Source of the DNA: Escherichia coli
GTDB lineage: Bacteria > Pseudomonadota > Gammaproteobacteria > Enterobacterales > Enterobacteriaceae
DNA: 64,000 bases
Assembly: GCF_013122565.1 (NCBI RefSeq)
Contig: NZ_CP053258.1
Reading direction: 5' to 3' (one strand)
Made by a program: the position numbers and the translations under genes. Shown here in pieces: positions 1 through 62,496 of this stretch (its first letter is position 1; each line of letters opens with the position of its first letter). The notes under the pieces were generated by a model that had not been told where the DNA came from, made no database searches, and worked only from the letters and a program-made list of their open reading frames with translations.

Positions 1-630
<630 letters not shown>

Positions 631-3161: not shown

Positions 3162-3880
3162 CGCAGATGACGACCGCCATCAAGTGGGAAACTGCGTCCG
3201 GTGACAAAGCAACTGGTAAGTAAGTAATCGACCAGGTCGATCACTTCTTTCTCGCCAGGCGCGGTTTTCATCAGTGATTTATTCAGCGCCTGTTGTCGAT
3301 ATTCGGCATCATCATGTTCATTAAACAGGATCAGCGATGGCGCAATAGAATTCACTTTCACTTCCGGTGCCAGCTTGCGGGCAAACGAGCGGGTCATATT
3401 ATCCAGTGCCGCTTTGCTTGCAGCATACGCAATATGTTTGTCGCTACCGCGCTCCACCACATAATCGGTAAAGTGAATGATATCGCTGGCGGCGTGTCCG
3501 TGCCCACGCAGTAATCTTTCCAGCGCATGGTTGAGCAGGTATGGGGTATTAACGTGGATCTGCATCATGCAAGCCAGTACGTCGGCCAGTGGCGCACCCG
3601 GTTTTTCCGCCATCCACGCACTGGCGTTATGCAAAATAGCACGCAGACCATGGGTGCTTTTTAGTACTTCGTCGGCAAACGCCATCACACCGTCGTTGGT
3701 CGAAAAATCAGCCTGAATACACTGCGCACCTGCATTAATCAGTCCATCAATGGCTGGATAGTGCGTCCGATAGCTGACAATCACCGGTTGCTTTTGATTA
3801 ATGAAATGCCATGCGAGGGCGAGGCCGATGCGACGACCACCGCCAGTAATTAATATTGGCAAGGGCTGGGCTTTACCCAT
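3158..3880 (-). CDS. folM: Dihydromonapterin/dihydrofolate reductase FolM (SDR family)
   Basis: 240 aa ORF with N-terminal ITGGGRRIG Rossmann motif and YAASKAAL SDR active site. Confidence 0.85.
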   Translation of the reverse strand: MGKAQPLPILITGGGRRIGLALAWHFINQKQPVIVSYRTHYPAIDGLINAGAQCIQADFSTNDGVMAFADEVLKSTHGLRAILHNASAWMAEKPGAPLADVLACMMQIHVNTPYLLNHALERLLRGHGHAASDIIHFTDYVVERGSDKHIAYAASKAALDNMTRSFARKLAPEVKVNSIAPSLILFNEHDDAEYRQQALNKSLMKTAPGEKEVIDLVDYLLTSCFVTGRSFPLDGGRHLR

Positions 3881-3916
3881 CGTTATCTCCTTTGCTATCC
3901 AACGATGGGATGAACG

Positions 3917-5299
3917 TTATCCCACCAGCATCCAGGTCGCCGGAACTGAGGCAATTAACAGCATGCCAATCAGCACCATTTCCTGACGGTTCAGTACATT
4001 ATCATGGGTATGCGTTTTACGCGCGTACAGGAAAACCAGCAGCCCCGGTGCATACAGAACAACGGATAACAGCAAGTGCATTGGACCAGAGGCGTACAAT
4101 AACCATAAGCCATAAATGCAGGCACCGACACCTACCGCTTTATGCAGTGGACGGGTTGCGATTTTCAGCAAGAACGCGCCGACCAGGAAATAGGGCACCA
4201 GAATCATTTCTGAGGCGATGGTCAGCAACGTGTTGTAATCGGAACCGGTCAGCCAGATGAGTACCAGACAAATTTGCACGCAGATGTTAGTCAACCACAG
4301 TGAGGCGGATGGCGCAGCTTGTGCGTTCTGGCGCGCAAAAATGCGCGGGAATGCTTTATGAGTGGCGGCCAGGAACGGAACTTCTGCCGCCATGATGGTC
4401 CAGCTTAAGTACGCGCCGCAAACGGAAACGATCAAACCGGCAGCGATGATGATTTCGCCCCACGGTCCCATCATTTCCACCATCAGACCGGCCATTGACG
4501 GGTTACGAATTTCAGCCAGTTCAGGACGTGCCACCACACCCAGCGAAAGCAGCGTTACCAGCAAGTAAACGCCCAGAGCGGAGAGAACCGCCAGCAGTGT
4601 CGCTTTGCCAACATCACGTTTATTACGCGCACGCGCAGAAACAACCACGGCACCTTCCACACCAATGAAAACCCACAGGGTGATCAGCATGGTGTTTTTC
4701 ACCTGTTCCCACACGGGGACGCCAAGTGCAAGTCCGGTGAAGTCGAGCTTGAAGGTATCCAGTTTGAACATCATCATAGCCAGCACAACAAACAGACCCA
4801 GCGGCAACAATTTTGCCAGTGTCGCCACCAGGTTAATGCTGGCAGCGGTTTGCACCCCGCGCAGGATCAAAAAGTGAACAATCCACAATAAAGCCGATGC
4901 ACCGACGATCGATTGCCAGGTATTACCATCGCCAAACAGGCGCAATTCCGGCGTGTCCGTAAAAAAGCTTAACGCGGAAAAAACGATTACCAGATAGGAG
5001 ACGTTGGCGATGACTGCGCACAGCCAGTATCCCCATGCGGAACAAAAGCCGATTAGCTCGCCAAACCCTTCGCGGGCATAGGTAAAGATACCGCCGTCAA
5101 GTTCGGGACGAATGCGCGTGAGGATCAGCATGGCAAAGGCCAGTAATAAAATACCAGCGCCAGTGATACCCCAGCCGATGAGCAGTGCTGCCGGGCTGGC
5201 AACTGCCGCCATATTTTGCGGCAGACTGAAAACACCCGCGCCCAGCATTGAGCTTAATACCAGCGCGGTGAGTGCGCTCAGTCCCAGTTTCTTTTCCAT
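3917..5299 (-). CDS. ydgI: Putative arginine/ornithine antiporter (ArcD-like, APC family)
   Basis: 460 aa polytopic membrane ORF; recalled match to E. coli YdgI. Confidence 0.85.
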   Translation of the reverse strand: MEKKLGLSALTALVLSSMLGAGVFSLPQNMAAVASPAALLIGWGITGAGILLLAFAMLILTRIRPELDGGIFTYAREGFGELIGFCSAWGYWLCAVIANVSYLVIVFSALSFFTDTPELRLFGDGNTWQSIVGASALLWIVHFLILRGVQTAASINLVATLAKLLPLGLFVVLAMMMFKLDTFKLDFTGLALGVPVWEQVKNTMLITLWVFIGVEGAVVVSARARNKRDVGKATLLAVLSALGVYLLVTLLSLGVVARPELAEIRNPSMAGLMVEMMGPWGEIIIAAGLIVSVCGAYLSWTIMAAEVPFLAATHKAFPRIFARQNAQAAPSASLWLTNICVQICLVLIWLTGSDYNTLLTIASEMILVPYFLVGAFLLKIATRPLHKAVGVGACIYGLWLLYASGPMHLLLSVVLYAPGLLVFLYARKTHTHDNVLNRQEMVLIGMLLIASVPATWMLVG

Positions 5300-6429: not shown

Positions 6430-6889
6430 AAAAATAATCCTTCGCCTTGCGCAAACCAGGTACTGGTATTGTTATTAACGAGAAACGTGGCTGATTATTG
6501 CATTTAAACGGTGTAACTGTCTGCGTCATTTTTCATATCACATTCCTTAAGCCAATTTTAATCCTGCTCAAATGACCGTCTATGCTTAAAAAACAGCCGC
6601 ATCAGCATCAATACTACTGAAGCAACTGAATTGTATAAGTTAATTTAATGTTAAGTAGTGATTCGTGCCGGGGCGATGTCTCGTTTTACCTGACCGTCGA
6701 AGACAATTATCAGTCTTTATCCGGCGTTCTAAGGTATTTATCCCACTATCACGGCTGAATCGTTAATATTTTGCGAGTTCACGCCGAAATACTGATTTTT
6801 GGCGCTAGATCACAGGCATAATTTTCAGTACGTTATAGGGCGTTTGTTACTAATTTATTTTAACGGAGTAACATTTAGCTCGTACATGA

Positions 6890-41340: not shown

Positions 41341-41379
41341 GCTCCGTTTAACATTCATTGAGAAAACTGATGCTACTGT

Positions 41380-41485
41380 GTCAACGATCCGTTATCAGTG
41401 CAGGAAAATGCCTGTTAGCGTAAAAGCAAAACACAAATCTATCCATGCAAGCATTCACCGCCGGTTTACTGGCGGTTTTTTTTCG
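41380..41485 (+). ncRNA. mgrR: Probable MgrR sRNA
   Basis: About 100 nt between dgcZ stop and a plus-strand intrinsic terminator (CCGCCGG-TTTA-CTGGCGG followed by T8); position matches K-12 mgrR between dgcZ and mgtS. Ends approximate. Confidence 0.4.
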
Positions 41486-41490
41486 CCGTC

Positions 41491-41531
41491 ATAAAAATCA
41501 GGCCCCTTGTACACAACTGTAACAAGGGGCC
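41491..41531 (-). terminator. Rho-independent terminator downstream of mgtS
   Basis: GGCCCCTTGT-loop-ACAAGGGGCC 10 bp stem followed on the minus strand by a T-rich run. Confidence 0.45.
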
Positions 41532-41558
41532 GGTTAGGTGAGGGATTATCTCCGTTCA

Positions 41559-41654
41559 TTAGTCATCCCATTTGTGGCTGAAATACGCGGCCAGAAAACC
41601 AGAAAATAAAATTATTCCCAGTACGGCCATAAAAACATTCATATTACCCAGCAT
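41559..41654 (-). CDS. mgtS: Small membrane protein MgtS (YneM), 31 aa
   Basis: Manual translation MLGNMNVFMAVLGIILFSGFLAAYFSHKWDD with GGAGG RBS; too short for ORF track. Confidence 0.8.
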   Translation of the reverse strand: MLGNMNVFMAVLGIILFSGFLAAYFSHKWDD

Positions 41655-51973: not shown

Positions 51974-52332
51974 TGCAGTCTCTCGATCCACTCTTCGCGC
52001 GTTTATCCCGTTCAAAATTTCGATCTCGTTTTCGTTTGGGCATGAAAGAGCGTCAGTATTGTCTGGATAAAGGTGCGCCAGTCATCGAACAACATGCGGC
52101 GGATTTTGTCGCTAAACGTCTTGCTCCGGCATTACCGGCTAATGACGGTAAGCAAACCCCCATGCGCGGGCATCCGGTGTTTATCGCTCAGCACGCCACT
52201 GCAACCTGTTGTCGCGGTTGTCTGGCTAAGTGGCATAACATTCCGCAGGGTGTTTCGTTAAGCGAGCAACAACAACGTTATATCGTGGCGGTAATCTATC
52301 ACTGGCTGGTTATACAGATGAATCAGCCATGA
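51973..52332 (+). CDS. yneG: DUF4186-family protein
   Basis: 119 aa; start overlaps glsB stop. Confidence 0.75.
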   Translation: MQSLDPLFARLSRSKFRSRFRLGMKERQYCLDKGAPVIEQHAADFVAKRLAPALPANDGKQTPMRGHPVFIAQHATATCCRGCLAKWHNIPQGVSLSEQQQRYIVAVIYHWLVIQMNQP

Positions 52333-52470
52333 GAATTGCGGAAAACGATAAAATAGCATTCCCAGGGTACCTTTATTTGCCGCCGCTGTCAGCGAACATG
52401 CTATCCTTTATGAGAATTTACTTATTACGTTGAGATAATTGCCACCCGCAATTGTATGGACAGATAATTA

Positions 52471-53889
52471 ATGCATGTACACCCCATTTCAACTTTCCGT
52501 TTGTTCCAGGAAGGTCATCTGCTACGTAATAGCATCGCTATTTTTGCGCTAACCACGCTGTTCTATTTTATTGGTGCAGAGTTACGGCTGGTTCACGAAC
52601 TTTCTCTTTTCTGGCCGCTGAATGGCGTAATGGCGGGGGTGTTTGCTCGCTATGTCTGGCTTAATCGACTGCATTACTATGCGATCAGTTATGTGGCGAT
52701 GCTGGTTTATGATGCCATAACCACCGAATGGGGACTGGTTTCACTGGCTATCAATTTCTCCAATATGATGTTTATTGTTACCGTCGCCTTACTGGTCGTG
52801 CGGGATAAGCGTTTGGGGAAAAATAAGTATGAGCCAGTAAGTGCCTTACGGCTATTTAATTACTGTCTGATTGCCGCATTATTATGCGCTATTGTCGGGG
52901 CGATTGGTTCGGTCAGTATTGATAGTCTGGATTTCTGGCCTTTGCTTGCGGACTGGTTCAGTGAGCAATTCTCAACGGGCGTGTTGATCGTGCCTTGTAT
53001 GCTGACGTTGGCTATTCCTGGAGTGCTGCCGCGCTTTAAAGCAGAACAGATGATGCCCGCCATCGCGCTTATTGTGTCGGTTATTGCCTCGGTAATCATT
53101 GGCGGAGCGGGGAGTCTGGCGTTCCCGCTGCCTGCATTAATCTGGTGTGCAGTGCGCTATACGCCGCAGGTAACATGTCTGTTGACCTTTGTCACCGGTG
53201 CGGTGGAAATCGTACTGGTGGCTAATTCGGTGATTGATATCTCGGTCGGTTCGCCGTTCTCCATTCCGGAAATGTTCTCCGCACGTCTCGGTATTGCCAC
53301 GATGGCGATATGCCCAATTATGGTTTCTTTTAGCGTGGCAGCGATCAATTCGCTAATGAAGCAAGTTGCGCTGCGAGCCGACTTTGATTTTCTGACTCAG
53401 GTTTACTCACGGTCCGGTCTTTATGAGGCGCTGAAAAGTCCATCGCTGAAACAGACACAACATCTGACTGTCATGCTGCTTGATATCGACTATTTCAAAA
53501 GTATTAACGATAACTATGGACATGAATGTGGCGATAAAGTGTTAAGCGTGTTTGCCCGGCATATTCAGAAGATTGTCGGTGATAAGGGGCTGGTGGCGCG
53601 CATGGGCGGCGAAGAATTTGCTGTTGCAGTGCCGTCGGTGAATCCTGTCGATGGTCTGCTAATGGCGGAAAAAATCCGTAAAGGCGTTGAACTGCAACCA
53701 TTCACCTGGCAACAAAAAACGCTTTATCTCACTGTAAGTATTGGCGTCGGTAGTGGTCGCGCATCGTACCGAACGCTGACCGATGACTTTAATAAATTGA
53801 TGGTCGAAGCCGATACCTGTCTGTATCGCTCGAAGAAAGATGGGCGCAACCGTACCAGCACTATGCGTTACGGGGAGGAAGTTGTCTGA
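52471..53889 (+). CDS. dgcF: Membrane-anchored diguanylate cyclase (GGDEF domain)
   Basis: 472 aa ORF; N-terminal multi-TM sensor region then GGDEF domain (MGGEEFA). Confidence 0.75.
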   Translation: MHVHPISTFRLFQEGHLLRNSIAIFALTTLFYFIGAELRLVHELSLFWPLNGVMAGVFARYVWLNRLHYYAISYVAMLVYDAITTEWGLVSLAINFSNMMFIVTVALLVVRDKRLGKNKYEPVSALRLFNYCLIAALLCAIVGAIGSVSIDSLDFWPLLADWFSEQFSTGVLIVPCMLTLAIPGVLPRFKAEQMMPAIALIVSVIASVIIGGAGSLAFPLPALIWCAVRYTPQVTCLLTFVTGAVEIVLVANSVIDISVGSPFSIPEMFSARLGIATMAICPIMVSFSVAAINSLMKQVALRADFDFLTQVYSRSGLYEALKSPSLKQTQHLTVMLLDIDYFKSINDNYGHECGDKVLSVFARHIQKIVGDKGLVARMGGEEFAVAVPSVNPVDGLLMAEKIRKGVELQPFTWQQKTLYLTVSIGVGSGRASYRTLTDDFNKLMVEADTCLYRSKKDGRNRTSTMRYGEEVV

Positions 53890-54115
53890 CATCTTTATTC
53901 ATTCAGAGCGTTTTAAATGCAATGTGTTCTACCACTTTATGTTCGAAGAAAAGGCGTATTTCCTCAATTAAACCATGATCCGCGCCACACTTTTCTCATA
54001 AAACTGCTCATTAATCATCAGGAGTTGATCAAAACAGGGGTTCGGCGTATTAAAGTTTGCTAACCTGTCGTACCAATTCAAACAGGTTGTATGACTAATC
54101 AGAAGGGAACCCATT

Positions 54116-55567
54116 GTGAAAACACTAAATCGTCGCGATTTTCCCGGTGCACAGTATCCAGAACGTATCATTCAGTTTGGTGAAGGTAACTTCCTGCGCG
54201 CATTTGTTGACTGGCAAATAGATCTCCTGAATGAGCACACCGATCTGAATTCTGGTGTGGTCGTTGTTCGTCCGATTGAAACTTCATTCCCGCCGTCACT
54301 GAGCACGCAGGATGGTCTGTACACCACCATTATCCGTGGCCTGAATGAGACGGGGGAAGCGGTCAGCGACGCGCGTCTGATTCGCTCTGTTAATCGTGAA
54401 ATCAGCGTCTACAGTGAATACGATGAATTCCTGAAACTGGCGCACAACCCGGAAATGCGCTTTGTTTTCTCTAACACCACCGAAGCGGGTATCAGCTACC
54501 AGGCGGGCGATAAATTCGATGACGCGCCAGCGGTAAGCTATCCCGCAAAACTGACCCGTCTGCTGTTCGAACGTTTTAGCCATTTCAACGGTGCGCTGGA
54601 TAAAGGTTGGATCATCATCCCGTGTGAGTTGATTGACTACAATGGCGACGCGTTGCGTGAACTGGTGCTGCGCTATGCGCAAGAGTGGGCACTGCCAGAA
54701 GCATTTATTCAATGGCTGGATCAGGCTAACAGCTTCTGTTCTACGCTGGTGGACCGTATCGTTACCGGTTATCCGCGTGATGAAGTGGCTAAACTGGAAG
54801 AAGAACTGGGTTATCACGATGGTTTCCTCGACACCGCTGAACACTTTTACCTGTTTGTGATTCAGGGACCGAAATCCTTAGCGACCGAGCTGCGTCTGGA
54901 CAAATATCCGCTCAACGTGCTGATTGTTGACGATATTAAACCGTATAAAGAACGCAAAGTGGCAATACTCAACGGTGCACACACCGCGTTGGTGCCGGTG
55001 GCGTTCCAGGCAGGGCTGGATACCGTAGGTGAAGCGATGAACGATGCTGAAATTTGCGCATTCGTTGAAAAAGCCATCTACGAAGAAATTATTCCGGTTC
55101 TGGATTTGCCTCGCGATGAACTGGAGTCTTTCGCCAGTGCAGTCACCGGGCGTTTCCGTAACCCGTACATCAAGCATCAGCTGCTGTCTATCGCGCTCAA
55201 CGGTATGACCAAGTTCCGCACCCGCATCCTGCCGCAGCTACTGGCAGGGCAGAAGGCAAACGGCACACTTCCGGCGCGCCTTACTTTCGCATTAGCGGCA
55301 TTGATTGCGTTCTATCGCGGTGAGCGTAACGGAGAAACATATCCGGTACAGGACGATGCACACTGGCTGGAACGTTATCAGCAACTCTGGAGCCAGCATC
55401 GTGACCGTGTTATCGGTACCCAGGAACTGGTTGCGATTGTGTTGGCAGAAAAAGACCACTGGGAGCAGGACCTGACGCAAGTGCCTGGTCTGGTCGAGCA
55501 GGTTGCTAATGACCTGGATGCGATTCTTGAAAAAGGGATGCGCGAAGCTGTACGTCCGTTGTGCTAA
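54116..55567 (+). CDS. uxaB: Altronate oxidoreductase (tagaturonate reductase)
   Basis: 483 aa; N-terminal [10 protein letters not shown] Rossmann motif. Confidence 0.9.
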
Positions 55568-55773
55568 TAACACCGTTACTTCTGAACCCGGTTTCGACCG
55601 GGTTTCTTCTTTCACCATATTAGTTACAACATCCTATGTGCCTTTATCATTAACAGGTGCCACATGCAGCGCCTGTTAATGTTGTAAGCTTATAGGTAAT
55701 TTGTAAGTAGCGTCTTGAGAATGTGATCGTAATCACGTTTAATAGGGCGACTTTTCCACGCCTGAAGATAACC

Positions 55774-56688
55774 ATGATTGTTCGTCCACAACAACACTGG
55801 CTGCGCCGTATTTTTGTCTGGCACGGCTCAGTATTATCCAAGATATCCTCGCGCTTACTACTCAATTTTCTCTTTTCTATCGCTGTTATTTTCATGCTCC
55901 CCTGGTACACGCATCTGGGCATCAAATTCACCCTCGCACCGTTCAGCATTCTCGGTGTTGCCATCGCCATTTTTCTTGGTTTTCGTAATAATGCCGGTTA
56001 CGCCCGTTACGTTGAAGCGCGAAAACTTTGGGGGCAGTTGATGATTGCCTCACGGTCGTTACTACGTGAGGTAAAAACGACATTGCCGGATTCGGCAAGT
56101 GTAAGGGAGTTTGCCAGGCTGCAAATCGCCTTCGCTCACTGTTTACGCATGACATTACGCAAACAGCCACAGGCGGAAGTGCTGGCACATTATCTCAAGA
56201 CTGAAGATCTTCAGCGTGTACTGGCTTCGAACTCTCCAGCTAACCGTATCTTGTTAATAATGGGGGAGTGGTTGGCGGTTCAGCGCCGCAATGGGCAGCT
56301 TTCAGATATCCTGTTTATTAGCCTCAACGATCGGCTTAACGATATTTCAGCGGTTCTGGCAGGCTGTGAGCGCATTGCCTACACGCCAATTCCCTTTGCC
56401 TACACCCTGATTTTGCATCGTACCGTTTATCTGTTTTGTATCATGCTGCCGTTCGCGCTAGTCGTGGACCTGCATTACATGACGCCTTTTATCTCTGTGC
56501 TGATTTCCTATACTTTTATTTCGCTGGATTGTCTGGCGGAAGAACTGGAAGATCCGTTCGGTACTGAAAACAATGATTTACCGCTGGATGCCATCTGCAA
56601 CGCTATTGAAATTGACCTGTTACAGATGAACGATGAAGCCGAAATTCCAGCAAAAATTCTTCCCGATCGTCATTACCAGCTGACGTGA
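55774..56688 (+). CDS. yneE: Bestrophin-family membrane protein
   Basis: ORF track 55723..56688; likely start MIVRPQQHWLRRIF; about 304 aa. Confidence 0.75.
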   Translation: MIVRPQQHWLRRIFVWHGSVLSKISSRLLLNFLFSIAVIFMLPWYTHLGIKFTLAPFSILGVAIAIFLGFRNNAGYARYVEARKLWGQLMIASRSLLREVKTTLPDSASVREFARLQIAFAHCLRMTLRKQPQAEVLAHYLKTEDLQRVLASNSPANRILLIMGEWLAVQRRNGQLSDILFISLNDRLNDISAVLAGCERIAYTPIPFAYTLILHRTVYLFCIMLPFALVVDLHYMTPFISVLISYTFISLDCLAEELEDPFGTENNDLPLDAICNAIEIDLLQMNDEAEIPAKILPDRHYQLT

Positions 56689-56691
56689 TAA

Positions 56692-57450
56692 TTACTCCGT
56701 ACGGCGGGCAACAATAAAAAGACGCGGAAATGCCAGCAGTATCTGTCCGTTCTCTTGCAGTGGATACTGCTCTTCCAGCATCTGATGGTAGCGCGTAAGA
56801 AAAAGCTGCTGTTCGCTCTCGGTCAGATCCTGTAACCACGGACGTAATCCAGTGGCGGTCACCCAATCGATAATCGCCTGGTGCGACGGCATCTGGTGAT
56901 AGTAGGTGGTTCGCCAGATATCGACCTCACATCCGGCTTCGCTCAAAATATCGTAGTAAGCATGAACGCCAGCCAACGGCTCACGCCCGCGATCCGGGTA
57001 GTTTTGTTCCCAGGCAACTTCGCGCATGAGCACATGGGTCGGCTCCAGCCAGTTATCTGGCATCTGTACTGCCAGCACGCCCTGCGGATTAAGTAAAGAA
57101 ACCAAGTGAGGAAACAATTCGTAGTGGTCGGGCAGCCATTGCAGTGAGGCATTAGCAAAAATCAGATCGAGTGCCTGTTCCGGTTGCCAGTTGCGGATGT
57201 CTGCTTCCACGAACTGGCAGTCTGGCAAAGCACTGCGCGCTTCAGCAATCATCGCCGGAGACGAGTCGATGCCTGTTATCCTGGCCGCAGGCCAACGTTG
57301 ATGCAGCAGGGCGGTGCTGTTACCTGGGCCACAGCCAAGATCGGCAACGTATTTGATATTCTCCAGCGGCACTCTGGCAAGCAGCTCCACCGCCGGACGC
57401 GATCGTTCAGCGGCAAAGTGCAGATATAAAGAGGGGTTCCAGTCAGACAT
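56692..57450 (-). CDS. tam: Trans-aconitate 2-methyltransferase
   Basis: 252 aa; SAM-binding [10 protein letters not shown] motif. Confidence 0.9.
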
Positions 57451-57499
57451 TTATTTACTCCCGTCAGCGCGTTACCCCAATTGTAGATAAAACTGTTGA

Positions 57500-59240
57500 C
57501 ATCCTCCACGCCCTGAATGACGAGGATCCTGCTACGTTCAGGCTGTCGCCTGAATCATTTCGGTGGGTTCCTGCTTCAACGGGCGGCCTGACTGCACCAT
57601 CCCTCCACAGGCAAGAACGGCGTACCCCGCCGCTAAAATGTTACGAGCGCCGTTTACATCGGCGTTCGCTGTATATCCACATACCTGGCATCTGAATTTA
57701 CTTTGTGACAGGCGATTTTCTTTCGTTGTATGACCACAGCACGCGCAACGCTGGCTTGTGTACGCTGGCGGAACAGCAAGCACCTGACCGCCACACCAGA
57801 GCTGCTTGTACTCAAGCTGGCGACGCATTTCATACCAGCCCTGATCCAGTATCGAACGGTTTAAACCTGATTTTGCCCGGACATTGCGCCCCGGCTGGCT
57901 GACCGTACCCGCTGCTGACTTTGACATGTTGCTGACCTTCAAATCCTCAATGACTATCATTGCGTGGTTTTTGCTGACGGTCGTTGTGACTTTGTGAAGG
58001 TAGTCCCTGCGGATATTTGCGATACGGGAATGCAGTCGCTGTATTTTGCGTTTCTGCTTCTGCCAGTTGTTGCTGAATTTGACCTTGCGGCTTAACTGTC
58101 GCTGAAGTCTCGCCAGCTTCTTCTGGTTTTTCTGAAAACTGTTTACAGGCTCAAAGACTGTGCCATCTGACAGCGTGGCGAGTTTAGCCACGCCAGCATC
58201 CAGCCCGATCATTGATGCTGAAGGGTGAACCGGAGTGGATACTTCACTTTCTGTCTGAATACTGATGTGCCACTTACCGCAGGACTGGCTGACCGTGACA
58301 TTTTTCACAACACCCGTGACCTGACGGCTATTCCGGTAGCGCATCCAGCCCAGTTTCGGCAGAAAAATACGGCTGTTTTCCTGATCGAGCTTAACGCCCT
58401 GCGGGTAGCGGAATGCATCATTCTGTCCCCGCTTTTTGAATCGGGGAAAAGCAGCCCGCTTCCGGAAGAAGTTTTTGTAAGCCCACTCAAGGTCTTTCAG
58501 TGACTGTTGCAATGGCTGTGACGGGGCATCTTTAAGCCATTGCGTTTCAGTGGCATTTTTCCACTCAACCAGCCAGGAAGCCATTTTCCCGTAAGGGATG
58601 TATTTATTACCGGCCTCATGATTCTCATTCTGACGTGCCAGAGCACGATTGAAAACGAAACGACATGCGCCTGCGAAGCGCCTCATTTCACGCTCCTGTT
58701 GACCACCGGGTCTTAACTGGAATTTAAATGCCTGTAGTCGTTTCACAGGTCAAATGATATTTTGGTCTGTGAAAAAAGAAACCGATATCCGGCGTGGAAG
58801 GCATTGTGTTTTCCTGAAGCATGTTCACATGGTCTTTGTCACCAAATACCGACGCCAGATTTTTGACCATGACGCGACAGAAAAACTACGCACTTACTTT
58901 TCAAATGTATGTGCTGATTTTGAAGCTGAACTGGTTGAAATGGATGGCGAACCAGATCACGTCCATTTGTTAATTAACTATCCTCCCAAACTGGCGATAT
59001 CCAGTCTGGTAAACAGCCTCAAAAGCGTATCGGGTAGGTTACTGCGACGAGATCGACCAGATATTGCAGCCAGGTATTACTACAAAGGCGTTTTGTGGAG
59101 TCCTGGCTATTTTGCCAGTAGCTGCGGAGGTACGCCAATATCCGTCATCCGCCAATACATTGAACAACAGCAAACACCTGGTCAGGTGGAAAACCACACC
59201 TTATATCCCCGCCCTGAAGGACGGGGTTTTACGGCGCACC
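57500..59240. mobile_element. IS200/IS605-family insertion sequence (IS609-like), about 1.7 kb, with tnpA and tnpB
   Basis: TnpB and Y1 TnpA ORFs fill the gap between tam and lsrG; similar imperfect palindromes near both ends (57506-57525 and 59207-59226). Ends approximate. Confidence 0.6.
57538..58746 (-). CDS. tnpB: TnpB (IS200/IS605 OrfB; RuvC-like RNA-guided endonuclease family)
   Basis: 402 aa, GTG start; RuvC-I GLDAG, RuvC-II IEDL, RuvC-III NADVNGA and CxxC...CxxC zinc finger present; starts [18 protein letters not shown] as recalled for E. coli InsQ. Confidence 0.9.
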
Positions 59241-59335
59241 GGATAAATTCGCCTCACGGCATCAACCCATTGAACAGACGCTTTTTACGCGGCCCGGTCA
59301 TTAAAGATTCCAGTTTCGCGACACAGGTTTTGTAG
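58754..59335 (+). CDS. tnpA: IS200-type Y1 (HuH) transposase TnpA; ORF as read extends past the expected C-terminus
   Basis: HVHLL HuH motif and conserved YY/GYF tyrosines; canonical proteins are about 150 aa, so the true end is probably near 59210-59240; the rest is read-through overlapping lsrG. Confidence 0.8.
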
Positions 59336-59544
59336 TGAGGCGTGGTTTTATGGAATGCCACTGCGTCTTCATCTTTATAGGCTTCGTAAATATAAAAGCG
59401 CGAATTCACTTCCGGGTCCTGTAAGACATCGAAGCGCAAATTGCCTTCTTCCTGTACAGAGCCCAGGTGGTTCTGGCGAAAAACTTCGATAAACTCGTCA
59501 ACCTTGTCTTCATGAACGTTAATTTCAACCAGTGTGACGTGCAT
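59254..59544 (-). CDS. lsrG: (4S)-4-hydroxy-5-phosphonooxypentane-2,3-dione isomerase LsrG
   Basis: 96 aa; translation [26 protein letters not shown]. Confidence 0.9.
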
Positions 59545-59567
59545 AATTCTTCTCCTTAAATCCGCAG

Positions 59568-60443
59568 TTACTGTTTTTCACTCAGATAGAGTTCATATGC
59601 CCGATCAGCTGTTTCGTTATGGTGAACCACCGCCTGTACGGCTTTCATCATCGCCACCGGATGGTCAGACTGGAAAATATTACGCCCCATATCCACACCA
59701 GAAGCGCCCTGATCGATAGCCTGCCAGCACATTTCCAGCGCCTCGCGCTCCGGTAATTTTTTACCGCCAGCAATAACAATGGGTACCGGACATCCGGCAA
59801 CAATCCGTTCAAAACCTTTATCGACATAATAGGTTTTGATAATTTGCGCCCCCATTTCAGCGGCGATTCGAGTCGCGAGCGAGAAATAACGCTGATCGCG
59901 CACCATATCTTTGCCCACGCCTGTCACGGCCATGGTCGGCATTCCCACTTTCATTCCGGCATCGACCAGCTGAATAATATTTTTGATCGACTGATGTTCA
60001 TATTCGCTGCCGATATAAACCTGCGCCGCCACCGCGCAACTGTTCAGGCGCACGGCGTCATCCATCGATAACGCCACGGCTTCATTACTTAATTCCGCCA
60101 GAATAGAGTTCGCACCTGACGCCCGCAGTACCACTGGCTTATTGGTCGCCGGGGGAACTACGCTGCGCAAAATACCGCGCGTACACATTAATACATCGGC
60201 ATGTTCAAACAGCGGGGCGATATTTATATCAATGCGTTCAAGTCCGGTAGTCGGCCCCTGAAAATAACCATGGTCAAAGGCCAGCATCACGGTTTTACCC
60301 GTTTTCGGATTAAATATCCGCGATAAACGTGACTGCATTCCCCAATCCAGCGCACCGCAACCTTTCAGGGTAAAAGGGATATTTTGTTGCGGTTGATCGG
60401 TACGAAAATCTTTACCATCTTTAATATCGTCTAAATCTGCCAT
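59568..60443 (-). CDS. lsrF: 3-hydroxy-5-phosphonooxypentane-2,4-dione thiolase LsrF (aldolase-like)
   Basis: 291 aa class I aldolase fold. Confidence 0.9.
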
Positions 60444-60469
60444 AACTTACTCCGGTTAAGTAATGCACA

Positions 60470-61492
60470 TCAGAAATCGTATTTGCCGATATTCTCTTTG
60501 TTGAATATCACGCGCTCCGGTAACAGTACGATGCCATTACCATCCGCTTCGTAGTCATAGCCCTGAACGCTGTTTGGCGAGACTTCCACCTGACCTACGC
60601 CCTGAATATCCAGCTTGTCGCCCGTTTTCATTGATCCTTTTTTCAATAATGCATCCGCGACATAAACTGAAATTTTGCCTTGCTGAACCACATCCCACAG
60701 GCCAAATTCTTTCACCGTGCCGCGCTCTACATACGGGCGCATCACATTTGGCGTACTGAATCCGACAATCGCTACTTTGTCATTTTTCAAGTTTTCTGCG
60801 GCTTGTGCGGCAGCGGGCAGGGCGTTGGCATCGGGGGCGATAATGGCGTCGAGATCGCTATACGCTTTTAATATTCCTTCTGCGGTTTGTAACGATTTAG
60901 TGGCATCGTTATAGCCAAACTGCGTAGTGACAATTTCCCAGCCAGGATGCTCTTTGGCGATTTTCGCTTTCGCTTCTTTCACCCACTGGTTTTGGTCCGT
61001 AACGGTGGGGCTTGAGTAGAAAAACGCGACTTTGGCTTTGTCTTTATTCACCTGACGCGCCGCCATATCCACCAACATACCTCCCAACTGGGCGGGCGTT
61101 CCCTGATTAATGTAGTAAGAGCGGCACTCCGGTTTAGTATCAGAGTCCCAGGTCAGCACTCTCACACCACGTTGCATGGCGCGTTTCAGTGCCGGACACA
61201 AGCCATCAGGCGAAACCGCAGAAACGATAATGGCGTTATAACCTTGATTGACGAAGTTATTAATCAACTGTACCTGACCAGAAACACTGGGTTCTGTCGG
61301 CCCGTCGTAGGTCACATCAACGCCCAGCTCTTTACCCGCTTGTTGTGCGCCGTTGCCACCGCTGGTAAAAAATCCCACGCCAACCAGTTTGGGAATAAAT
61401 GCAATACGCTCTGCGGCCTGCACATTCATAGAGATTGCGGCAATGCCAAGAGCGCTAAGTAAGGCGATTTTCTTAAAGCGATGAAGTGTCAT
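60470..61492 (-). CDS. lsrB: AI-2 periplasmic binding protein LsrB
   Basis: 340 aa with signal peptide. Confidence 0.9.
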
Positions 61493-61503
61493 GAAGATAT
61501 CCT

Positions 61504-62496
61504 TTATGGCAATGGGTTATTGGCCCGACGCGCCAGCCACTCTTTAATTTGCTGGCGATGCAGGCTAACGGAACGACCTACGACAACGACGATAAGTAGC
61601 GCACCGGAAAGGGCGCTGGACACCTGATTTGGCACTCCTGCCATTTGCAAACCTTGTTGCAAATATCCCACTAATAAAACCGCAATGGCGGTGCCGATAA
61701 TGGAACCGGAACCACCATAAATATTGGCCCCGCCAAGCACCACGGCGGTGATGGCGGGCATCAGAAACGACGCACCGAGATCGGAACGTGCTGAACCAAA
61801 ATACGATACCAGCAGCACAGCGGCGACCGCAGACGCCAGCCCCGTCATGGCATAGAGCGCACATAAGGTGCGGTTAACTGGAATCGCGCTATAAAGCGCC
61901 ACGCGCGGGCTTTGCCCAATCAAAAACACATTACGTCCGGCATGGGTTTTATGCAGCCAGAGCCAGAAAACGAGGAGACATATCAGGAAGATAATCAGCG
62001 GAACGGGGAGTCCCAGCACATCCAGGTTAGCGAAATCTGTAAACGCCATCGGGAATCCACCAATACCTTCGTACCCCGTCGCTCCGGCCATCCCGGAAAG
62101 CAGCAGGGCACTTCCGGCAAACAGATACAGCGTGCCAAGCGTAATCACCAGCGGGTTAACTTTGGTATAGATAATTAATCCGGCGTTGATCAGCCCGCAC
62201 AATGCGCCGAGCAGTAAGGTCAGGAGAATCGCCAGCGGCATCGGCACACCACTTTGAAACAGTACGCCCAATGCAATGGCGCAGAGGCCGATGGTCGAAC
62301 CAAACGAAATATCTATCCCGCCACTGACAATCACCATCGTCAGCGGTAGGGCGACAATGCCAATGCAGATAAAGTCACTGGTGCTGAACAGCAACATATT
62401 GAGATCTAACATCCGCGGGTTAATTGCACCAAATGCGACAATCTCAATAACGAGCAGTGCGGCAAGAGCCAGTTCCCAACCGTAGCGAATACGCAT
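61504..62496 (-). CDS. lsrD: AI-2 ABC transporter permease LsrD
   Basis: 330 aa polytopic permease. Confidence 0.9.

Follow-up and report, generated by a model that had tools for sequence, protein, structure and literature searches.

An IS609 isoform between tam and lsrG in a rare Escherichia coli lineage, with complete ends and tnpB and a tnpA that lacks its native stop codon

The closest described relative of the element examined here is the IS609 copy of Escherichia coli K-12 (NC_000913.3, 1503161-1504908), which is 1748 bp long, sits at ydcL-ydcO and carries insQ and the pseudogene yncK/insP in divergent order. The mechanistic reference for the IS200/IS605 family is IS608 of Helicobacter pylori, a Y1/HUH element with subterminal imperfect hairpins, a left cleavage site outside the element and a right cleavage site at TCAA. 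For the second gene of such elements, comparison is made with ISDra2, in which a structured omega-RNA is encoded across the tnpB 3' end and the right end, the variable flank beyond it serves as guide, and the TAM is TTGAT. The cleavage sites of IS609 itself have been given as TTAT on the left and TCAA on the right (PMC6906374), and its TnpB was purified in one screen (PMC12781874). The K-12 copy made zero transpositions in mutation-accumulation lines (PMC5009759), the only experimental datum on mobility that was found.

An IS609-like element was identified in a 64,000-nucleotide stretch of E. coli DNA, hereafter the window, between tam and the lsr operon. Alignment to the K-12 IS609 annotation and to empty tam-lsrG sites (L010 and K-12, the latter suggested in the earlier note) placed a complete element of 1747 bp at 57496..59242 on the minus strand, slightly wider than the 57500-59240 first proposed. 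From end to end, 1704 of 1746 aligned bases (~97.5%) are identical to the K-12 element annotated as IS609, and the ends coincide. Under the ISfinder rule, an isoform shares >90% nucleotide identity with a reference element along its full length; judged by its sequence, the element is an isoform of the catalogued IS609, with divergent tnpA and tnpB, and the family assignment made beforehand (IS200/IS605, IS609-like) was borne out. In the copies from five further E. coli loci, homology stops exactly at 57496 and 59242, and the same ends delimit it in Salmonella, Klebsiella and Xanthomonas plasmid copies. The window and K-12 copies share their divergent gene order, their ends (CCGGTGCGCC... and ...GGATGTCAA), the TTAT target and a CAG codon in place of the tnpA stop; they differ in location, and in this lineage 1 nt is missing immediately 5' of the right-end hairpin. 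The active "top" strand is the minus strand of the window, with the left end at high coordinates and the right end at low coordinates. When the window was searched for second copies, remnants or TAM-plus-guide targets, only the element itself matched.

The tam start (57450) and the lsrG stop (59254) are 1803 bp apart, matching the separation of about 1.8 kb read from the window at the outset; the K-12 spacer was found to be 56 bp rather than the roughly 100 bp given there. The nearest empty allele reads AAAACTG/ATAAATTC, where the slash marks the insertion point, and differs from the occupied allele by exactly the element, with no target duplication. As this empty allele runs ...CTG/ATAA..., the insertion is precise and lies 3' of TTAT in the lsrG-tam spacer. 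The target, which is also the left cleavage tetranucleotide, is TTAT at 59243..59246 (minus strand; ATAA on the plus strand) and belongs to flanking DNA outside the IS; ATAA directly follows ...CACCGG at 6/6 compared E. coli insertion sites. The element shows the insertion mode expected of an IS200/IS605 member, with a fixed tetra- or pentanucleotide directly 5' of it and no target-site duplication.

Among 5426 complete E. coli genomes, a contiguous empty site was present in 4210, K-12 among them, and the tam-IS junction in only 31, while IS609-like DNA was found somewhere in 5369. The earlier note had proposed a strain-specific insertion, which would have been in doubt had the same segment lain at this position in K-12 and most E. 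coli; the site there proved to be empty. The converse reading, of an ancestral tam-lsrG segment that K-12 and most strains have since lost by deletion, has nothing in its favour beyond presence in this window, and its probability is negligible. It is refuted by the genome counts (4210 contiguous sites against 31 occupied) and by the empty-allele comparison; moreover, the boundaries match to the base those of a multi-copy element that also occurs elsewhere in chromosomes and on plasmids, and the TTAT junction is the insertion signature of the family. Same-site copies are separated by 14-19 substitutions and their flanks diverge by 1.6-2.8%, indicating an old rather than a recent insertion. IS609 would have inserted as single-stranded DNA 3' of TTAT in the 56-bp spacer of one E. 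coli lineage, and vertical descent together with recombination would since have kept it at tam-lsrG. IS609 is a catalogued element, and about 30 complete RefSeq genomes already contain this insertion in annotated form.

Terminal inverted repeats are absent, and subterminal hairpins occur at both ends on one strand, as in other IS200/IS605 elements. At the left end, an imperfect hairpin at 59207..59226 (minus strand; CCCCGTCC-TTCA-GGGCGGGG) gave a DNA fold of -12.6 kcal/mol (z = -2.65), and its motif is unique in the window. Its foot lies 16 nt from the TTAT cleavage point, compared with 19 nt in IS608. The tetranucleotide AAAA at 59227-59230 (minus, i.e. top, strand), the 4 nt 5' of this hairpin foot, is presumed by analogy to be the left guide; as in IS608, where the left guide is AAAG and the target TTAC, both hairpins have a tetranucleotide on the 5' side of the foot that could serve as guide. 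The left-end arrangement fits the IS608 end-layout rules (PMC3201880). At the right end, a hairpin at 57505..57526 (minus strand; CCTCGTC..GGCGTGG, with one possible extra T-A pair) corresponds to helix 8 of the consensus structure described below and carries compensatory changes in Klebsiella and Xanthomonas; folded alone from the single sequence, this DNA hairpin was not significant (z = -0.15). The right cleavage site follows 10 nt later, the same distance 3' of the hairpin as in IS608, and its tetranucleotide TCAA (57496..57499, minus strand; TTGA on the plus strand) forms the last four bases of the element. It is invariant in 10/10 aligned relatives, and similarity ends directly after it. 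TnpA, where active, would bind both subterminal hairpins on the window minus strand and would cut after TTAT and after TCAA, moving the top strand by "peel and paste". Polymorphism of the site within the species is the sole, indirect evidence for such single-strand excision and integration.

The tnpA reading frame (58754..59335, plus strand) encodes 193 aa with a complete Y1 domain. Pfam Y1_Tnp (PF01797) was matched over model positions 2-121 of 121 (E = 1e-40), NCBIfam NF033573 scored 143 bits against a cut-off of 55, and the similarity extends to IS608 TnpA (2A6M/2VHG, E = 4e-18), although protein identity is low and tnpA and tnpB are co-directional in IS608 and divergent here. The His-hydrophobic-His motif (H69-V70-H71) and the catalytic Tyr (Y119) of a Y1 HUH transposase are present, in keeping with the HVHLL-bearing Y1/HUH TnpA described earlier, and the native stop codon is absent. 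The tnpA ATG at 58754 and the tnpB GTG ending at 58746 diverge with 7 bp between them, as had been estimated, and the NCBI pipeline uses the same two starts in other strains. An alternative tnpA start, GTG at 58769 (codon 6), matches the position at which the 138-aa relatives begin.

The tnpA frame contains no premature stop or frameshift, yet no stop codon closes it within the element. Codon 144 (59183-59185), the ancestral stop position, is CAG here, and translation would run on to 59335. The tail of 50 aa comprises 20 codons of left-end sequence and then 30 codons outside the IS, antisense to the 3' end of lsrG; these unrelated residues directly follow the C-terminal helix region that bears the catalytic Tyr. 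The stop at codon 144 is taken as ancestral because outgroup relatives keep it. The 143-aa WP_000604932.1 and relatives of 138-146 aa from Salmonella, Klebsiella, Proteus, Photorhabdus and Morganella, with 82-94% aa identity over the Y1 domain, all end ...QQQTP(G/S/D), the stop being kept in the Salmonella, Klebsiella and Proteus relatives, whereas the window TnpA reads 50 codons further. WP_000604932.1, a TnpA of IS609 type, is encoded at the yeaQ-DUF1869 site, mainly in large STEC-type genomes. TAG at codon 144 was also considered as the common E. coli state and was rejected on the counts, the CAG read-through form occurring at 6690 places in 4204 genomes and the rare TAG form at 126 places. 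The read-through form occupies at least six different chromosomal sites, with total predicted TnpA lengths of 160-254 aa at other loci; it is therefore likely that transposition went on once the stop had gone, that copies were mobilised in trans, or that gene conversion homogenised them. The tail may be tolerated.

In same-site copies NCBI annotates tnpA as a pseudogene; codon 1 is ATT in two of these copies, one of which also has a frameshift. In the window copy codon 1 is ATG, the catalytic residues are all present and there is no frameshift; codon 96 is Leu, where K-12 tnpA has an internal TGA. When tnpA was compared with K-12 or with the copy L008, 8 of 9 differences were non-synonymous, and two TnpA substitutions, L26M and G91S, fall at nearly invariant positions. 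The tnpA of this lineage has lost its native stop and shows relaxed constraint.

The tnpB gene (57538..58746, minus strand), a homologue of insQ, encodes a 402-aa RuvC nuclease with a zinc finger. Pfam HTH_OrfB_IS605 (PF12323), OrfB_IS605 (PF01385) and Cas12f1-like TNB (PF07282) were matched, and NCBIfam guided_TnpB (NF040570) scored 382.7 bits. A full-length alignment to ISDra2 TnpB (8BF8/8EXA/8H1J, E = 2e-57) showed that the RuvC residues D183, E267 and D363 and the zinc-finger cysteines C334/C337/C353/C356 (CxxC...CxxC) are kept, with an insertion of ~15 aa after the catalytic Glu in the window protein. The HTH/WED-REC, RuvC and zinc-finger parts of a TnpB nuclease are all present, which upholds the three RuvC motifs and the zinc finger reported at the start. 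Thirteen aa differ from K-12 InsQ; the K-12 change C336Y was considered as a zinc-ligand loss and dismissed, as ISDra2 numbering puts the ligands at C334 and C337. With 7-27 differences per comparison, dN/dS was 0.24-0.33 against five other copies, whereas the nearest same-site copy (L001), from which it has no more than 7 differences, gave 1.71. All seven analysed copies have a full-length tnpB, a frameshifted copy at the ytfB site excepted.

An omega-RNA scaffold of seven helices is predicted at 57496..57669 (minus strand), spanning the final ~130 nt of tnpB together with the right end. The consensus fold of a 10-sequence alignment has 54 pairs in eight helices, the first of them lying just upstream (57678-57707). 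In this alignment, of 10 sequences only, on which the structure itself was predicted and part of which is coding, the share of paired cells is 93% and compensatory changes occur in 16 pairs; 0/500 shuffles reached the observed values, and slid controls paired only 33-47%. The 225-nt RNA folded as a single sequence was not significant alone (z = -1.68). Within the element no Rfam family reached its gathering score, the sub-threshold matches on the right end being HgcC (23.6 vs 50 bits) and RAGATH-18 (28.1 vs 44.9 bits). As expected of a TnpB system, this putative structured RNA is followed by a flank-derived guide position.

By analogy with the TnpB literature, the tam-proximal flank would act as guide; this putative guide is the retained tam 5' leader at 57476..57495 (minus strand; CAGUUUUAUCUACAAUUGGG). 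The flank at this position differs in every copy, and flanks beyond TCAA are unrelated. Judging from the insertion site, TTAT is presumed to be the TAM for this TnpB, in place of the ISDra2 motif, and the putative TAM and guide target takes the form TTAT-CAGTTTTATCTACAAT. In the nearest empty allele the guide segment lies directly 3' of TTAT; at the occupied locus TCAA precedes it, so that no TAM is found there. TnpB would be loaded with RNA drawn from the 3' end of its gene plus the right end, in which 16-20 nt of tam-proximal flank serve as guide, and once loaded would cut any empty allele of the form TTAT+CAGTTTTATCTAC..., after which recombination would restore the element.

The reading we favour, at a probability of about 0.85, is that this is an IS609 isoform whose ends, tnpB and omega-RNA region are structurally complete, which is most likely non-autonomous or only weakly mobile, and in which tnpB and the omega-RNA are maintained. 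The sequence data show its identity, ends, target, site polymorphism, reading-frame state and RNA covariation, and every activity is inferred from them. The earlier note had called both genes uninterrupted and the element possibly still mobile, to be tested by alignment for inactivating substitutions. For TnpB this stood, as no disabling change was found; for TnpA it did not hold in full, given the lost stop codon, L26M, G91S and the same-site pseudogenes. Continued mobility is therefore doubtful on these sequences, and limited mobility is favoured because the tnpA stop is lost and constraint relaxed. A fully autonomous and currently active IS609, in which both proteins work and the element excises and jumps, would agree with the uninterrupted tnpA frame with its ATG, HUH motif and Tyr, with the two complete ends, with the polymorphism of the site within the species and with the many loci that the read-through form occupies. 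We nevertheless consider it unlikely in view of the 50 unrelated residues added to TnpA, the two substitutions at nearly invariant positions, the mostly non-synonymous changes in tnpA and a same-site divergence that fits an old insertion. The immobility of the K-12 copy in mutation-accumulation lines points the same way, but that copy has the internal TGA. That the element is instead a wholly dead relic, with TnpA and TnpB/omega-RNA both inert, is decidedly unlikely. The NCBI pseudogene label on tnpA of same-site copies would suit it, as would the promoter and terminator scan, which gave nothing usable for tnpA, tnpB or tam, with no sigma-70-like promoter on the relevant strands and a single promoter-like site, which lies within tnpB but in the wrong orientation. 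However, tnpB remains full length apart from the ytfB-site frameshift, its dN/dS against five copies is low, its catalytic and zinc residues are kept, and the RNA helices retain compensatory changes across genera.

The position of the guide in the tam leader and the conservation of tnpB while tnpA decays could also suggest a domesticated, TldR-like TnpB that acts as an RNA-guided regulator of tam through its flank-derived guide. Proteins of the TldR type have lost the RuvC residues and the transposon ends, whereas here the triad is intact and both ends are present. Furthermore, the guide is whatever flanks the right end at every locus, the resident site is without a TTAT motif, and >99% of strains have tam without the element, so that such a role is very improbable.

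The insertion cuts tam off from everything upstream except 45 bp; the displacement of its native upstream region, noticed at first reading, is thus confirmed. tam is listed within an lsrACDBFG-tam unit (PMC8085971), and here it is separated from the lsr promoter by 1.75 kb, so that tam expression in this lineage could change. There is a slight chance that, in the dominant E. coli IS609 lineage, the stop-less tnpA with its locus-dependent TnpA tails amounts to a built-in, position-dependent attenuation of transposition, that TnpB and its guide RNA, being under purifying selection, are the part really maintained, and that a tnpB/omega-RNA transcript running into the tam leader could replace the drive of the lsr operon. 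The practical value of the analysis lies in exact coordinates for ends, target and guide, with little significance beyond annotation. For annotation, IS609 tnpA serves as a warning that an uninterrupted open reading frame is not the same as an intact gene; and the stop-less transposase, with tnpA decaying while tnpB is conserved, poses a small, testable side question.

The element between lsrG (59254-59544, minus strand) and tam (56692-57450, minus strand) is IS609, already catalogued, at a site that is rare but has been sequenced and annotated before. K-12 MG1655 has, between ydcL and ydcO, a mobile element that is annotated as IS609 and contains the tnpA pseudogene yncK and the tnpB homologue insQ; the two copies align over their whole length and are identical at 1704 of 1746 positions, but the window copy occupies the lsrG-tam spacer. 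That spacer is 1803 bp in the ORF map, in agreement with the 1.8 kb that the earlier note placed between the tam start (57450) and the lsrG stop (59254), and 56 bp in K-12, shorter than the 100 bp or so given there. The closest empty allele found, from an O169:H41 strain, reads ...GTAGATAAAACTG directly joined to ATAAATTCGCC..., and the occupied allele reads ...AAAACTG, the element (TTGACATCC...GCGCACCGG), and then ATAAATTC.... From this comparison, the insertion spans exactly 57496-59242 (1747 bp), without target duplication, which gives precise ends to what had been called an IS200/IS605 (IS609-like) element between tam and the lsr operon.

The top strand of the element is the minus strand; there, TTAT precedes the element at its 5' side and the element terminates in TCAA. 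Left TTAT and right TCAA are also the IS609 cleavage sites given in a paper on P1-like plasmids (PMC6906374). At five other E. coli sites (gltX-yfeD, yedK, ytfB, yeaQ-DUF1869, and ydcL-ydcO), TTAT adjoins the same left end and the DNA past the right end is unrelated, and in Salmonella, Klebsiella, and Xanthomonas plasmid copies similarity breaks off exactly at ...GGATGTCAA. The left end, read on the minus strand, consists of TTAT, the cleavage point, CCGGTGCGCCGTAAAA, a hairpin (CCCCGTCC TTCA GGGCGGGG; 59207-59226; -12.6 kcal/mol, z = -2.65), and ATATAAGG..., with 16 nt between hairpin foot and cleavage point. The right end, on the same strand, runs ...GGAT, a hairpin (CCTCGTC A TTCA G GGCGTGG), and AGGATGTCAA up to the cleavage point, 10 nt from the hairpin foot. 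In IS608, cleavage on the left falls outside the element, at 19 nt rather than 16 nt on the 5' side of the hairpin, the right spacing is 10 nt as here, and each cleavage site is recognised by the tetranucleotide immediately 5' of the hairpin foot, AAAG pairing with TTAC (PMC3201880). The four bases 5' of the window left hairpin are AAAA, which by the same logic would, we infer, fit a TTAT target.

IS609-like DNA was present in 5369 of 5426 complete E. coli genomes, at 3 places in the median genome. With an artificial 700-bp query for the empty tam-lsrG site, the site was contiguous in 4210 genomes; a 200-bp query across the junction of tam and the right end was covered in only 31, and approximately 30 match a 10-kb query over the whole locus, element included. 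The element is thus a real, lineage-restricted insertion, much as the earlier reading of a strain-specific one had it. Nor is it recent: 14-19 substitutions separate same-site copies from that of the window, and the flanks of two occupied strains are up to ~2.8% apart. No complete E. coli genome was >98.8% identical to window 52000-62000 (10 kb), nor was the exact window TnpB sequence found in the public assembly index; among nine copies, six element substitutions (57624, 57726, 59070, 59132, 59196, and 59198) are private to the window. In the pigeon strains PT62 and LP5-1, the same-site IS609 is split by an IS3-family element, the two-piece match spanning 3064 bp. In roughly a fifth of genomes (e.g. 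ST131 O25b:H4), the match was confined to positions 1-426 of the empty-site query, that is, tam plus ~76 bp past the insertion point, with no lsrG or lsrF feature listed under the matches; contiguous lsrG-lsrF beside tam appears to be missing from these genomes.

The element encodes a 402-aa TnpB (57538-58746, minus strand) and a TnpA (start 58754, end 59335, plus strand), whose divergent start codons are 7 bp apart, as first read, and are those chosen by NCBI's pipeline in other strains. TnpB matches the Pfam models HTH_OrfB_IS605, OrfB_IS605, and the Cas12f1-like TNB domain, scores 382.7 bits against NCBIfam 'guided_TnpB' (cut-off 100), and aligns over its full length to ISDra2 TnpB (8BF8/8EXA/8H1J, E=2e-57). 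By this alignment, the RuvC residues D183, E267, and D363 and the zinc-finger cysteines C334/C337/C353/C356 are kept, bearing out the motifs reported earlier. The tnpA ORF likewise proved to be of the Y1/HUH type, spanning the Pfam Y1_Tnp model in full (E=1e-40), matching NCBIfam NF033573, and retaining the HUH histidines H69/H71 and Tyr119.

The copies differ at the end of tnpA. Codon 144 is TAG in the copy adjoining the DUF1869 gene, giving a 143-aa protein (WP_000604932.1), and CAG in the window and every other copy compared; for this reason, NCBI annotates tnpA of same-site copies as 'incomplete; missing C-terminus' (one is frameshifted too). TnpA relatives of 138, 143, or 146 aa, 79-84% identical, occur in Salmonella, Photorhabdus, Morganella, Klebsiella, Proteus, and Yersinia, and all six that were aligned (Salmonella, Photorhabdus, Morganella, Klebsiella, and Proteus among the sources) end in ...QQQTP(G/S/D), whereas the E. 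coli forms extend to 160-254 aa with unrelated tails. A stop at codon 144 is thus the ancestral state, lost in the main E. coli lineage. In the window, the frame stays open for 20 codons within the left end and another 30 antisense to lsrG. With 47-nt queries distinguishing the two states, the TAG form was found at 126 places, all 25 among the matches listed being at yeaQ-DUF1869, and the CAG form at 6690 places across 4204 genomes, yeaQ-DUF1869 of other strains among them; TAG at this locus may be retained or a reversion. The listed TAG-form genomes are mostly large (5.4-5.9 Mb) and STEC-type, their 143-aa product annotated as an intact IS609-family transposase (3560-3991 of one such locus, L008).

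The 'intact and possibly mobile' element of the earlier note is supported only in part. Residual TnpA function is favoured by several features: the window tnpA opens with ATG (ATT in three other copies, two of them at tam-lsrG), is free of frameshifts, and retains every catalytic residue; GTG at codon 6 matches the start of the 138-aa relatives. Against intactness stand the lost tnpA stop, the incomplete annotation of same-site copies, and the non-synonymous nature of 8 of 9 tnpA differences from the K-12 or 143-aa copy (small counts). For tnpB, by contrast, dN/dS is 0.24-0.33 against five copies (small counts), although 1.71 against the closest same-site copy, on 7 differences. Judged against 11 other aligned TnpAs and the IS609 copies compared for dN/dS, the window lineage also carries two substitutions, L26M and G91S, where TnpA hardly varies. 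The window tnpA is not fully intact. Because the read-through form occurs at many loci, it either was still mobile after stop loss, moved in trans, or was spread by gene conversion. In the only experimental record found, mutation-accumulation lines showed no further insertion of the single K-12 IS609 (PMC5009759). The tnpA of that copy carries an additional internal stop.

For the putative guide RNA, ten copies (E. coli chromosome; P1-like and IncY plasmids; Salmonella, Klebsiella, and Xanthomonas plasmids) were aligned over the final ~230 nt of tnpB, the right end, and a 20-nt flank. The consensus fold comprises 8 helices (54 pairs); 93% of its cells are paired, and compensatory changes occur at 16 pairs, values taken from ten sequences only, on the alignment used for prediction and in a partly coding region. 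None of 500 column shuffles matched them, and pairing fell to 33-47% when the 3' partners were shifted by 1-3 columns. Helices 2-8 form a scaffold from ~57669 down to 57496 (minus strand) that includes the right-end hairpin and a long-range helix (57636-57641 with 57499-57504, minus strand), and the flank beyond differs in each copy. The predicted scaffold and variable flank look like a TnpB omega-RNA. Rfam matches on the right end (HgcC and RAGATH-18) were both sub-threshold; that to RAGATH-18 (57568-57611, minus strand; 28.1 versus 44.9 bits) coincides with helices 5-6, which suggests a possible overlap between this motif family and the guide-RNA scaffolds of TnpB. The putative guide, CAGUUUUAUCUACAAU..., lies directly 3' of TTAT in the empty allele; at the occupied locus TCAA precedes the matching sequence, so the resident copy would be no target, and nothing else in the window matches TTAT plus guide.

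A terminator-pattern scan alone flagged a 6-bp stem at the tnpB start (CCUGUG/UACAGG, 7-nt loop; 58731-58749, minus strand) that would enclose the GTG codon, which has no obvious Shine-Dalgarno upstream; the stem may act in translational control or be due to chance. IS609 has been reported in P1-like plasmids (PMC6906374), and in one P1-like phage-plasmid (NZ_CP021537.1; L009, 2349-3557) an IS609-type tnpB and right end lie between head genes without tnpA, the DNA past the tnpB start being unrelated to tnpA. Fragments of ~100-140 nt resembling the right end and omega-RNA (77-85% identical), without annotated tnpB, occur in the E. coli IncY plasmid CP088789.1, where terminal GGAGGATGCCAA and several scaffold helices are retained, and in a Providencia stuartii plasmid (L017 and L018); such pieces are perhaps orphan right ends, perhaps miniature derivatives.

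One paper gives tam as the final gene of an lsrACDBFG-tam unit (PMC8085971). The native upstream region of tam is displaced, as noted earlier, with only 45 bp remaining. With lsrG, tnpB, the predicted RNA, and tam on one strand and the element between lsrG and tam, upstream-driven tam transcription would have to cross the element or start inside it. The Ter core ATGTTGTAACTA is matched perfectly at two places ~55 kb apart, 55621-55632 and 612-623 (both minus strand), within CATAGGATGTTGTAACTAATATGG and AATAAGTATGTTGTAACTAAAGT, which we take to be TerC and TerB, respectively. The former maps to the yneE-uxaB spacer of K-12 (position 1609164), and the distance from IS609 to TerC is thus ~1.9 kb, within the replication terminus. 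In a genome arranged like that of K-12, the element top strand would be the lagging-strand template of the clockwise fork, the orientation reportedly preferred by the IS200/IS605 family. The window has no tRNA genes, and the Hfq-binding sRNA STnc560 (41352-41565, plus strand; 281.9 bits) is its sole Rfam family above the gathering score.

Family literature suggests the following steps, for which the window provides the sequence prerequisites alone. TnpA dimers would bind both hairpins on the minus strand and cut after TTAT and after TCAA, freeing a single-stranded circle that could integrate 3' of another TTAT. TnpB with its omega-RNA would then cut the resealed donor (TTAT plus guide match), whereupon recombination with a sister copy would restore the element. 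A stop-less transposase gene next to a conserved tnpB and predicted guide RNA poses a modest side question.
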